Source: Desulfobacterales bacterium
GTDB taxonomy: Bacteria; Desulfobacterota; Syntrophobacteria; B119-G9
DNA length: 25,721 nt
Direction: 5' to 3'
NCBI GenBank assembly: GCA_026992215.1
Contig: JALXAI010000102.1
Span: 1 to 25,721, forward strand
Part shown: in pieces, positions 2,853 through 12,639 of the stretch
How positions within the stretch are numbered: the stretch's first letter is position 1
Layout: each line of letters opens with the position of its first letter
The notes under the pieces: generated by a model
What the model saw: the letters and a program-made list of their open reading frames with translations, nothing else
Databases searched by the model: none
What the model was told of the DNA's origin: nothing
Made by a program: the position numbers and the translations under genes

Positions 2853-3197
2853 ATGAAGCGTTTGATATCTGAAATTAGAAGTAGCTGGCATCATGGTAAA
2901 GGAGAAAAGTACTCTAGGAAAGGTCAACAGGAGAAAGCACTTCAACATTTTCTGGAAGCATTAAATCAAGCACAAAAAACGGACAACGAAGGATCAATTG
3001 CCGTGGAGTTAGAATCTATAGGTGTCACGTATCTTAGGCTTGGGAAGTATGCTTTTGCCAAGAGATACTTATTCCAAGCCCTGAAGGTTTTTTCTGAATT
3101 ATCAAATCGAGAGGATAACAGCTACTTTTCCAGTCGAGTGGAAGAGATAAGAAAATTATTAGAACATTGCGATCACCACTTGTCGGTATCCGATTAA
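2853..3197 (+). CDS. Probable immunity protein for RHS toxin 2; TPR-like (114 aa)
   Basis: Lies 19 bp after the orphan toxin stop. Helical TPR-like pattern (G..YSRKGQQEKALQHFLEAL; IGVTYLRLGKYAFAKRYLFQAL). Confidence 0.7.
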   Translation: MKRLISEIRSSWHHGKGEKYSRKGQQEKALQHFLEALNQAQKTDNEGSIAVELESIGVTYLRLGKYAFAKRYLFQALKVFSELSNREDNSYFSSRVEEIRKLLEHCDHHLSVSD

Positions 3198-3253
3198 TAA
3201 CTACGAAACAATCAGTGGAAACACTATTTAGAGGATACCATAAAAAACCTGAG

Positions 3254-3344
3254 ATAGTGCAAGAATTTTTCTGTAAAAAGGTGGTTAGTCTTTCTGAGAA
3301 GAGACTTCACTTCGGTCTGCTTTGACTGTGCCCTCAAAGTTGGT
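3254..3344 (+). repeat. 91-bp dispersed repeat, copy A (copy B at 9301-9391)
   Basis: Ungapped manual alignment gives 14 mismatches in 91 bp (ATAGYGCAAGAATTTTTCTGT...AAGAGACTTCA...TTGACT). Confidence 0.85.
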
Positions 3345-9030: not shown

Positions 9031-9300
9031 CGATTAGATAAAGAATCGGTTAGGGGGCAGACGTAAATTGTTTTCACCTTTGTGGCCAGGCCTGAGCCAG
9101 GTATCACCGCGCTTATCAATAGCACTGCAATTTTGTGGGAGTCTATTTTATCATTTTTTGCTTTGTCCCCATGAATCGCCTTCATGTATGGTGAACGACC
9201 AAGGGCAAAAGGTTACCCCCGGAAGCACAAAGGTGTGAAATCCAATTCTATGTGGACATGAACTCGATAGAAGCTACTATGTCTTCCCGGTTCTTCCCGG

Positions 9301-9391
9301 ATAGCGCAAGAATTTTTCTGTGAAAAGGTGCTTAAGCTTTCTGATAAGAGACTTCATTTTGGTCAGCCTTGACTTTGCGCTTAAAGCTGGT
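9301..9391 (+). repeat. 91-bp dispersed repeat, copy B
   Basis: Aligns without gaps to 3254-3344. Confidence 0.85.
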
Positions 9392-10439: not shown

Positions 10440-10465
10440 CTTCCAGCTCCGTTTTCTCCACGCAG

Positions 10466-10551
10466 AACAACCAACTTCACTTACACCTATGGAGCGCCGT
10501 CGTGCTGAGCCTGTCGAAGTAAGCGTAATGGCGGTCAGGTGAAGCGCTTTG
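10466..10551 (-). other. attC-like site body (its R'' end displaced to 10878-10884), with a short insertion in the loop
   Basis: Minus strand reads CAAAGCGCTTCACCTGACCGCCATT...GCGCTCCATAGGTGTAAGTGAAGTTGGTT. CTTCAC/GTGAAG pair as L''/L'-like arms just inside a GTT. Confidence 0.55.
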
Positions 10552-10882
10552 GTCAAGTAAGTCGATACGCGGCAGTTTTCGGAAACTCGTATTGACCTTT
10601 TTCAGTATTTCGGTGTAGCTTAATAAAAAAGGTGCCCTCGCTTTTTCATACAAGGTTTGTTATCAAACATATTGATGCTGTTTCTTATCTTCTGAATATC
10701 TTATGCTATTGTGAGCTTACTTCTACGATCCTATCTAAATCCTGCAATCGACTGAATTCATATCAAATAAATCACTTCGAAGCAGCCCCCTAAAACGATC
10801 TGCGTACCAAGGCGCCTTCCTGAACTATGGATTAGTTACGAGCTCTCGTTCCTCGACTCGGAACTAATCCTTTATTTGTTAA
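10549..10882. repeat. ~335-bp non-coding element, copy 1 (copy 2 at 12268-12602)
   Basis: Manual alignment gives about 55 differences and one 1-bp gap in ~335 bp. Both copies have the same end points relative to attC-like sites. Confidence 0.9.
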
Positions 10883-11286
10883 CCCATCCCTTTGATTATT
10901 CGGTAATAACCGCTATGATTTCCTATCCATACCCAGATGAAATCCTGGCCTTCCTTTATGACCAATGCTCCATGATTGAGACCAACCCGGATAGACCAAA
11001 ATTTACCAACCTTCTTGAAATGAAGCGAAGGATGTAAAGGATCGACTATAAGTACCTAATATTTTCCCATGCAGTTGCTGCACGTCTTGCCGAAGACCCT
11101 CAAACAATTTCCAGAAACGGGCGAGGGCATCTCTGAGCAAAAAATCTAACTTTCCTGATCGTGAGTCAGATTTAATCTCTTTGTCCCACTTTTCCAATCT
11201 CTCTCGAAAAACCATTCTCTCAAGCGTGCAAAATCCTCTCTCGAGAGGGATTCAATTGATGATAATATTTCTTCCACATTGGGCAT
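10879..11286 (-). pseudogene. Decayed toxin-antitoxin cassette: small antitoxin fused by deletion to a RelE/ParE-like toxin
   Basis: The antitoxin MPNVEEILSSIESLSREDFARLREWFFERDW/EKWDKEIKSDSRSGKLDFLL (1-bp frameshift) runs straight into RFWKLFEGLRQDVQQL. After another frameshift comes DPLHPSLHFKKVGKFWSIRVGLNHGAL...FIWVWIGNH, the typical RelE-like C-terminus, with TAA at 10879-10881. Confidence 0.8.
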
Positions 11287-11310
11287 TTCCATTTCTCCTT
11301 TCCATTGGAT

Positions 11311-11445
11311 GGTTAACAGGAGCGTCAGCAGCACGGCGTGTTTGTGCAGCACCATCGATGGCGACGTTACTTCGCCTTCAAACCGCCACCGTCATCCCAA
11401 TGTGAAGCGGTATCCGGTGCAAGCAGGATTAGGTTGCATTTTTGG
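11311..11445 (-). other. Degenerate attC-like site between the HEPN gene and the TA cassette; R' = GTTAACC (11311-11317)
   Basis: GTTAACC at the cassette start is the exact reverse complement of GGTTAAC (10878-10884) at the cassette end. Internal pairing of this site is weak. Confidence 0.5.
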
Positions 11446-11451
11446 TTGAGC

Positions 11452-11841
11452 CTAACTCAGCAAAGAACGGATTGTCTCAATAAACTCTTCCGTCTCACTC
11501 ACTAGAGGCTCTACAATATCACTATCCAGCGATACAAAATCAATGTAGTCTCCTTCGCGCCGCAAATCAAACAACCGATTATAGAGCCATCCTTTTTCTT
11601 TTGACACAATCCCTGGTTTGACATAGTGTTGATTAAACAACGCCTTGACACCACTATGCTTTGTGGCTCTGTGCCCGTCTTTCACCAGCAGGGCGGAGAC
11701 GGCATAAAATGCCGTATAGTAGAGACGATTGACACACGTGTTCCAATGTCCCATCTGTCGCATTACCCTTGCCTCTTCTAACGTCTCCTCCGCTCGCCGC
11801 AGACGGTAAGCAACCAACGCTTCCAGTTCATTTTCCCTCAT
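11452..11841 (-). CDS. HEPN-domain protein (UPF0332-like), partner of the upstream nucleotidyltransferase
   Basis: Motifs NRLYYTAFYAVSALL, KHSGVKALF, LFDLRREGDY; ATGA overlap with the MNT gene. Confidence 0.88.
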   Translation of the reverse strand: MRENELEALVAYRLRRAEETLEEARVMRQMGHWNTCVNRLYYTAFYAVSALLVKDGHRATKHSGVKALFNQHYVKPGIVSKEKGWLYNRLFDLRREGDYIDFVSLDSDIVEPLVSETEEFIETIRSLLS

Positions 11842-12164
11842 ACAGCTATCCCGTCTCTCTCTACTTCCTGGCGCAAGGGCACGACTTCATACTGCCGAGA
11901 TAGCCATTGCTGCTTGCTACGAATGATGCTGCTCAACACGGTATCCGTCTCCAACTCAATGTCATACAAACGGCGCTTGATTTGCAATTCCAATGTTTTA
12001 TCCACCTGTCCGGGCAACAAAATAAGGAAATCCCAATCGGAATCTGCTCGCGCAGTGCCCCTGGCGCGAGAACCGTAAAGTATCACTTCGGCTCCTGGCT
12101 CCAATGCCTGCACAGCCGTTTTCACGCGCTTCAGAAATTCGCTCTGTCTTATCGTTTTTTCCAT
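11838..12164 (-). CDS. Minimal nucleotidyltransferase (MNT) domain protein
   Basis: LYGSRARG-x4-DSDWDFL (GS..DxD motif). Start moved to ATG 12164 (MEKTIRQ) behind AAGGA. Confidence 0.9.
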   Translation of the reverse strand: MEKTIRQSEFLKRVKTAVQALEPGAEVILYGSRARGTARADSDWDFLILLPGQVDKTLELQIKRRLYDIELETDTVLSSIIRSKQQWLSRQYEVVPLRQEVERDGIAV

Positions 12165-12217
12165 AGCTCTATCCTTTTTACAATTACAAACCACTCTGTG
12201 TGGGAGTAGGCCGAGCA

Positions 12218-12270
12218 ACCGGACGATGAGGGTGAGCCACCGAGTTTACGAGGTCAGGTCTACCTTCTTG
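12218..12270 (-). other. attC-like site body (R''-like TTTTAAC displaced to 12598-12604)
   Basis: Minus strand reads CAAGAAGGTAGACCTGACCTCGTAAACTCGGTGGCTCACCCTCATCGTCCGG, an imperfect hairpin ending in a degenerate GTT box. Confidence 0.5.
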
Positions 12271-12602
12271 GTCAAATAAGCCGCCACGCGGCAGTCTTCG
12301 GAAACTCGTATTCACCCTTTTCAGTATTTCGGTGTAGCTTAATAAAAAAAGTGCCATCGATTTTTTATACATGGTTTACTATCAAGCATATTTATAGTGA
12401 TTCTCATATTCTGAATATCTTATGCTACTGAACGCTCACTTCCACGAGCCAATCCAAATCTTGTAACCGGCTTAGCTCATATCAAATACGTCACTTCGAA
12501 GCTGCCCGCCTAAAACGATGTACGTGCCAAAGCGGCTTTTTGAACCATGGATTAGCTACAAGCTCTGGTTTCTCGACTTGGTACTAATCCTTTATTTGTT
12601 AA
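12268..12602. repeat. ~335-bp non-coding element, copy 2
   Basis: See copy 1. Confidence 0.9.
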
Positions 12603-12639
12603 AACCTCACTTTAATGATCGCTCATAAAATTAGCATCG

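Follow-up and report, generated by a model that had tools for sequence, protein, structure and literature searches.

Gene-less repeats in a Desulfobacterales cassette array as probable miniature members of an IS91-family lineage that inserts at attC sites

Introduction

What are two gene-less blocks of about 330 bp, closely similar to each other and set among dissimilar neighbours, doing inside an integron cassette array? They lie on contig JALXAI010000102.1 of a Desulfobacterales bacterium (GenBank assembly GCA_026992215.1; positions 1 to 25,721 of the forward strand, a stretch of 25,721 nt that we call the window). An initial annotation of this DNA took them for a non-autonomous mobile element aimed at attC sites, with a mobile structured RNA or a promoter module as further options. 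Each block is, in our judgement, probably a miniature, non-autonomous member of an IS91-family insertion sequence (IS) lineage, an assignment that rests on the sequence of its two ends and of those of its transposase-bearing relatives.

Two gene-less copies with common ends

The two blocks (Table 1) are colinear over their whole length, with 84% identity over 334 nt by BLAST (E 5.5e-98) and 83% by global alignment; a repeat finder lists both as direct repeats, and they are the only two copies in the host assembly (3.03 Mb in 599 contigs, 84% complete). Earlier drawn at 10549-10882 and 12268-12602, which are the same blocks under a different end logic, they had been described as two copies of about 335 bp, free of open reading frames (ORFs), about 83% identical and alike in their end points, and this description stands. 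No ORF of at least 50 aa is common to both copies, no protein similarity was found in either, and homology begins and stops sharply at both points: read on the minus strand, which is the cassette strand, it starts directly after ..TTAAC and ends at TTGACC. The plus strand of the window corresponds to the transposase sense of the full-length relatives described below. TTTG stands at both junctions of copy 1, whose boundaries can therefore be placed only to within 3-4 nt. Two colinear copies stand at two sites, and the miniature form itself was therefore copied.

Could the second copy instead stem from one old insertion that was duplicated together with part of its attC site, the flanks being reshuffled later by cassette recombination? 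The flanks, which the initial annotation called unrelated, are so beyond about 20 nt; the right flanks have no significant similarity, and the left flanks retain a weak similarity over ~24 nt (local score p about 0.009). That residue, and an identical 8-mer, ACCTGACC, at the same offset in both right flanks, would suit a duplication. We nevertheless consider it improbable, because flank identity is at background within 20-30 nt as against 83% over 327 bp in the element itself, attC sites within an array are expected to have similar R''/L'' regions, metagenome contigs contain a third, diverged miniature copy, and the family inserts independently at 14 different flanks.

The blocks also fail to resemble an RNA gene or a promoter. 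The whole window has no Rfam match at E up to 1, and the folds of the element strands are not notable against shuffles (z-scores -1.6 and -0.5), which leaves the proposed mobile structured RNA without backing; no sigma-70-like promoter was found inside either copy on either strand, so the suggestion that the blocks drive the next cassette is not supported. These results also bear on the idea that each block is an ordinary ORF-less integron cassette, or a structured-RNA gene or promoter, unrelated to transposons. ORF-less cassettes are common in chromosomal integrons, and a hairpin beside a stop codon resembles attC at first sight. On the array strand, however, where a cassette would have G|TT bounds and its own 3' attC, the homology unit is offset from the cassette boundaries: the minus-strand repeat runs from an R'' box to a second R''-like box, that of the next site, and the sites after the two repeats are unrelated to each other, although the opposite strand of the unit does look cassette-like. 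Both ends, moreover, are termini of transposase-bearing elements, which already contradicts this very improbable reading.

Full-length relatives carry an IS91-family transposase

Where, then, do the ends come from? In the sister genomes G001 and G002 only the first ~70 nt of the element (minus-strand reading) recur, with the last 30 nt at one place too. The 70-nt module, a 14-pair hairpin with AAATAAA before it, stands at stop codons of toxin-antitoxin genes; its neighbour in G001 is a truncated IS91-family transposase gene, and that of the 30-nt module a truncated integrase gene. A pattern scan for the hairpin returned five metagenome contigs, one of which (L018) holds a complete element, and no match among genome contigs; a protein-guided scan of species-representative genomes was used there instead and gave ten further loci, several with both ends, from Desulfobacterota-type, Neomarinimicrobiota and Acidobacteriota metagenome-assembled genomes (MAGs). 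Seven more elements, full-length or partial and from unrelated MAGs, have the ends of L018 as well.

Full-length elements measure ~2.4 kb and consist, in transposase sense, of the end called terIS, a tyrosine recombinase gene, a Y2/HUH transposase gene and the end called oriIS. The L018 transposase matches Y2_Tnp (PF04986, 4e-58) and Zn_Tnp_IS91 (PF14319, 2e-24) and scores 364 bits on the IS91 family equivalog NF033538 (cut-off 125), and the accompanying recombinase reaches 147 bits on the integron-integrase model (cut-off 265) and 161 on 'tyrosine recombinase/integron integrase' (cut-off 220). The window copies align with L018 at 84-89% over 66-70 nt on the oriIS side and at 78-85% over 27-45 nt on the terIS side (copy 1: 89% over 66 nt and 78% over 45 nt), with no alignment between the two ends; they thus retain ~26 nt at the terIS end and ~80 nt at the oriIS end, and the roughly 220 bp in between are non-coding and unrelated. 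Between the two copies, conservation is best at 16-90 nt from the terIS end.

The initial annotation had suggested a search for longer relatives, alike in their ends, with an IS110/IS1111 recombinase or another enzyme. They exist, and what they carry is an IS91-family Y2/HUH transposase with a tyrosine recombinase, neither an IS110/IS1111 enzyme nor a group II reverse transcriptase. Since the window copies lack the transposase that full-length elements with the same two ends encode, we class them as putative non-autonomous derivatives and not as an IS; like miniature inverted-repeat transposable elements (MITEs), they combine the two ends of an autonomous element with an interior that codes for nothing and has the same structure at more than one site.

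Other candidates fell away. An IS110/IS1111 bridge-RNA carrier was dropped, the relatives with the same ends encoding an IS91 transposase and a tyrosine recombinase and no DEDD enzyme. An IS200/IS605-type palindrome-associated transposable element (PATE) with an omega-RNA, considered for the TTAC-like flank and the subterminal hairpins, was dropped on the relatives' IS91 TnpA and the lack of an Rfam match, and a group IIC-attC intron on the lack of both an Rfam match at E up to 1 and an ORF. That the hairpin might be a genus-specific attC was rejected because it has two copies in the host genome, homology runs past the supposed R' in all copies, and the hairpin stands at the end of transposase-bearing elements.

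Table 1. Features of the two putative miniature copies and their surroundings in the window, and of the complete element in metagenome contig L018
Feature	Sequence	Positions	Strand	Description and basis
Copy 1, putative miniature element, 327 bp	Window	10551..10877	+	Repeat finding, BLAST, alignment, junction reading
terIS end of copy 1	Window	10551..10576	+	GGTC, AAGTAAG, degenerate palindrome; alignment with seven full-length elements
oriIS end of copy 1	Window	10819..10877	+	Inner box CCTGAAC (10819-10825), 14-pair hairpin (10829-10870), spacer TTTATTT (10871-10877)
Target of copy 1	Window	10878..10884	-	R'' box GGTTAAC (GTTAACC on +; GTTA = IS91-type target tetranucleotide); exact reverse complement at cassette start
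R' box opening the cassette of the copy 1 target	Window	11311..11317	-	GTTAACC (G|TTAACC), 440 bp upstream of R''
Remainder of the attC split by copy 1	Window	10462..10550	-	Imperfect, non-canonical hairpin CTTCAC..GTGAAG; ends GTTGGTT/GTTCTGC before next gene start
Copy 2, putative miniature element, 328 bp	Window	12270..12597	+	Repeat finding, BLAST, 83% identity to copy 1
terIS end of copy 2	Window	12270..12295	+	GGTC, AAATAAG, intact palindrome GCCGC-CAC-GCGGC (12280-12292)
oriIS end of copy 2	Window	12539..12597	+	Inner box TTTGAAC (12539-12545), hairpin (12549-12590), spacer TTTATTT (12591-12597)
Sequence beside copy 2	Window	12598..12604	-	TTTTAAC on -, GTTAAAA on +; candidate R'', fits 6/7 positions
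oriIS hairpin	L018	718-795		Preceded by a flank ending in GAAC (read like the cassette strand of the window)
IS91-family transposase gene, 364 aa	L018	1027-2121	-	~250 nt past the hairpin module
Tyrosine recombinase gene, 291 aa	L018	2118-2993	-	
terIS	L018	ends at 3137		30-nt module ending in CTTGAAC

How well do these ends follow the rules of the family? Work on IS91 (PMC13181058, 2026) describes transposition without target duplication, with a target tetranucleotide (CTTG, GTTC or GTCC) adjoining oriIS, which itself has one or two subterminal palindromes, and with a single palindrome in terIS beside the tetranucleotide that is cleaved (GTTC in IS801 and IS1294); for transposition in trans, 89 bp of terIS with 82 bp of oriIS are enough. 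In nine copies of the present family, terIS reads GTTC (GGTC in the window), AAGTAAG and GCCGC-nnn-GCGGC, the palindrome being degenerate in copy 1; the seven full-length elements have GTTCAAGTAAG and then GCCGC-nnn-GCGGC, with variable loops. The oriIS hairpin stands 7 nt from the element end, downstream of tnpA in L018, L026-L028 and L031, and across 14 aligned copies pairing holds in 91% of its cells and drops to 18-46% once the partners are slid. The flank abutting oriIS is GTTA, GTTC or GTTG in 13 of the 16 flanks listed (12 of the 14 tested sites). In L028 and L031 the AAC/GTT core alone is common to both junctions, with no target duplication; CAAA, earlier read as a 4-bp target duplication or a shared core, arises where the terminal motif of the element overlaps the target.

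Insertion at the R'' box of attC sites

Which sequence does the lineage choose? A true cassette opens with G|TTRRRY, and the R'' box of its attC complements that opening. Beside the oriIS hairpin, in cassette-strand reading, the flank ends in NAAC, before which stand mostly pyrimidines and a purine, and 15 flanks fit the R'' consensus RYYYAAC at 47 of 60 informative positions (hand count). At the level of whole cassettes, we sought the exact reverse complement of the 7-mer flanking the element upstream at cassette-length distance, and it is present 440-761 bp upstream in 7 of 14 independent insertions, with one mismatch in an eighth; control 7-mers, moved by 8-28 nt, gave a mean of 0.48 matches in 14. 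Both cassettes of G001:C114 pass this test. When the two flanks of L026 are joined, they fold as a canonical 62-nt attC, from GCCCAAC to GTTAGGC; the right flanks of L014, L025 and L028 form imperfect hairpins, with ends GTTATGA and GTTAGCG in L014 and L025. Orientation is fixed, the transposase sense being opposite to the cassette genes. These observations support insertion of the family directly after the AAC of the attC R'' box, a point 5' of GTT on the bottom strand, which splits R'' from the rest of the site, and the earlier claim of a non-autonomous mobile family at a fixed attC position is borne out by them and by ends that match transposase-bearing elements.

The cassette upstream of copy 1 (10885-11290, minus strand), whose attC provides the target of that copy, encodes a decayed addiction-module antitoxin and a RelE/ParE-like toxin with a broken frame, and the stop codon of the decayed toxin gene lies inside the R'' box. 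An intact homologue of the pair is found in G021, at 74% DNA identity and outside a cassette context. Extrahelical bases gave a conflicting orientation for this decayed, split attC, and it was the R''/R' complement at cassette level that settled the matter.

Likely consequences for the array and a possible source of enzymes

What does such an insertion do to its array? With R'' separated by 330 bp from the rest of attC, the site should be disabled for the integron integrase. The cassette strand has terminator-like hairpins, one of which is the terIS palindrome of copy 2, and hairpins with T runs after them face the cassette transcripts. Polarity, together with inactivation of the split attC, would be a likelier effect than a promoter role.

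The host genome does encode an integron integrase (IntI), on another contig (G000:C365 (L009), 222-1469; 421 bits on TIGR02249). Because that contig is 3 kb long and leaves 221 nt upstream of the gene, its cassette array is unlinked in the assembly. The open frame of this IntI is 415 aa long, about 90 aa longer at the N-terminus than usual. The host IntI gave no tblastn match to a remnant in the window, and the window array is best seen as an old, integrase-less cluster.

Public runs that contain this stretch are hydrothermal vent metagenomes. In their Logan contigs the depth of the oriIS hairpin is 80-140x and that of neighbouring DNA about 17x. The contigs continue from one side of the hairpin into full-length-type interior and from the other into several different flanks that begin after GTT. 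The same vent communities therefore harbour a full-length relative.

Another sequence is more abundant still in these data: part (window 11268-11392) of the 160-nt spacer that separates the HEPN gene from the decayed toxin-antitoxin cassette reaches up to 1543x, against about 17x nearby, and must therefore be a very abundant repeat or a widely shared sequence in vent communities. This spacer has R''/R'-like boxes, GCTCAAC ... GTTAACC, and no single-hairpin fold. Elsewhere in the window an unrelated 92-nt direct repeat (3253-3344 and 9300-9391, 85% identity) recurs 6 kb apart.

Among the relatives, L015 4780-5098 (minus strand) and L016 5340-5664 (minus strand; G001:C119) are MNT/HEPN toxin-antitoxin loci followed by the oriIS hairpin and a shared body of ~300 nt that has no canonical terIS end; L015 has a second GGTTCAAAGAGGCGCC box about 390 nt further. 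This body may be another miniature form or a product of one-ended transposition. Two IS91-type copies are themselves interrupted, in L019 (about 620-760) by a small element with inverted ends of roughly 24 bp and in L020 (10380-11459) by an IS200-like Y1 transposase fused to a DnaA C-terminal domain.

Discussion

How might such an element move, and why into attC? By analogy with IS91, IS801 and IS1294, the transposase would nick at the oriIS/GTTN junction, rolling-circle replication would displace one strand as far as terIS with its GTTC and palindrome, and the displaced strand would be closed into a single-stranded circle and joined 5' of a target GTTN. A bare tetranucleotide cannot account for attC at 7 of 14 sites, and we therefore propose target choice by mimicry: the enzyme may pick targets that resemble its own origin. 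The element's own oriIS junction, made of the hairpin, TTTATTT and GTTN, has the same shape as the bottom strand of attC, in which a hairpin and a 5-7 nt spacer are followed by GTTRRRY. Conservation of the terIS palindrome, even in miniature copy 2, argues for the use of an HUH pathway. Reduced to the cis-acting ends, the window copies would be mobile only if a full-length relative supplied the enzymes.

The same ends can also be read as an imitation of a cassette. Once joined, they form an attC-like site, with the inner box CTTGAAC, the hairpin, the spacer and, from terIS, GTTCAAG; in full-length elements the inner box and the start of terIS are perfect 7-nt complements around the hairpin, so that the circle would carry an attC mimic. 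The repeat unit on the plus strand has cassette-type boundaries, starting after G and ending ...G|TT. The element might then move by tyrosine recombination, its own integron-like recombinase or the host IntI exchanging at R'' boxes with folded top strands; the part of the HUH enzyme would be limited to producing the single-stranded circle, or the miniature form would do without this enzyme. The scores of the recombinase on the two integron models and the presence of IntI in the host genome suit this reading, as does contig L027 (QMMV01000434.1), where at 2490-2510, in cassette-strand reading, terIS abuts the oriIS of a second copy, CTTGAAC|AAATAAAGG; a tandem copy, the joint of a circle or a loop in the assembly would each explain that junction, which is also the one indirect sign of transposition through single-stranded circles. 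Movement by recombination of this kind seems to us unlikely all the same. The recombinase falls under every curated cut-off (147 vs 265 and 161 vs 220 bits), the palindrome by the GTTC of terIS, for which a pure attC-type mechanism would have no use, is conserved in all copies including copy 2, the spacers of the mimic (3 and 7 nt) differ from those of canonical attC sites, the boxes in the window copies are only 5/7 and 6/7 complementary, and the features fit the IS91-family rules point by point (PMC13181058).

Might both pathways be at work? In a hybrid of rolling-circle IS and cassette, the HUH enzyme would make the circle, and its attC mimic would then be recombined with the R'' side, on the folded top strand, of resident attC sites by the integron-like recombinase or the host IntI. 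We regard this as a minor possibility; were it true, the miniature copies would be cassette-like passengers that the host integron machinery might move or fix.

Several points weigh against the preferred reading, in which the blocks are miniature IS91-family elements moved by an HUH enzyme. The junctions are compatible with HUH cleavage (5' of G) and equally with tyrosine-recombinase cleavage (G|TT), and since they fit both bonds, sequence alone cannot decide the enzyme. Covariation in the oriIS hairpin is weak, the observed score being reached by 23 of 500 shuffles. No cognate transposase was found in the assembled host genome, which is 84% complete and fragmented and where the only Y2 match is a 23% identical fragment on C139. 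The interior of ~220 bp matches no protein, no fetched locus and nothing else in the host genome, and the copies are therefore not plain internal deletions of the full-length elements fetched. To these points are added the residual similarity of the left flanks and the state of copy 2, for which no complementary cassette start was found upstream and whose downstream 'remainder' (about 12180-12269) does not fold as one hairpin. The initial annotation had read an R'' box beside both blocks; this holds for copy 1, whose GGTTAAC complements the GTTAACC 440 bp upstream, and falters at copy 2, which has neither the partner nor the single hairpin. Empty-site alleles had been named beforehand as possible support, and none came to light: in relatives, the sole one with a homologous toxin-antitoxin pair (G021) does not have it in a cassette, and none is present among the joints listed from Logan contigs of four runs.

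How does the lineage compare with known systems? The full-length relatives resemble the IS91 family (IS91, IS801, IS1294 and IS1294b) in their layout of terIS, accessory ORF, tnpA and oriIS, and share with it the absence of target duplication, a GTTC-like tetranucleotide by oriIS, an oriIS palindrome and a terIS with GTTC and a single palindrome (PMC13181058). They differ in the accessory gene, which is orf121 there and a tyrosine recombinase here, and in the target, which is any GTTC or CTTG there and the GTT of an attC R'' here (verified at 7 of 14 sites); their transposase is less than 40% identical to those of plasmid-borne IS91 elements, and the window copies have none. The same gene pair occurs in two-ORF IS91 members with a tyrosine recombinase, such as ISShvi3 and annotated pairs of integrase and IS91 transposase in Herpetosiphon and Clostridium plasmids. 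ISShvi3 was described as 'adjacent to an attC site' in a Shewanella integron, in an account that treats the position as incidental and states that attC was interrupted by no IS (PMC9229058); the likeness to ISShvi3 drawn here is one of gene content and position, and no miniature derivatives are reported for two-ORF members. Laboratory mini-IS91 constructs (89 bp of terIS and 82 bp of oriIS around a marker) and MITE-type elements are alike in consisting of ends with an unrelated interior and in mobilisation in trans (PMC13181058), whereas the window element is natural, has ~26 nt of recognisable terIS and is known from its sequence alone. With IS1111-attC elements (IS110 family) and group IIC-attC introns, the lineage shares site- and orientation-specific insertion into attC and life as a parasite of cassette arrays; it differs in its enzymes, HUH-Y2 and tyrosine recombinase in place of a DEDD transposase or of a reverse transcriptase with a ribozyme, and in its insertion point, here directly after the AAC of R''.

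Those elements and introns are the two recognised kinds of attC-specific integron parasite, and the literature searched gave us no account of IS91-family elements that target attC. A third kind would be added by an IS91-type, rolling-circle lineage that brings its own recombinase. It would also illustrate clearly how an HUH transposon selects a target that is folded, single-stranded and similar to its own origin. Its miniature copies would show that two short ends are enough for propagation, and would so define a minimal substrate. IS91 and ISCR relatives have been linked to the spread of resistance genes near integrons, and a mechanistic tie to attC sites is therefore worth knowing, even though the present host is environmental, from a hydrothermal vent metagenome. 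For the arrays themselves, insertions of this kind should freeze the cassettes nearby, as the initial annotation reasonably supposed, and add polar hairpins, and so are relevant to the decay of old chromosomal arrays.

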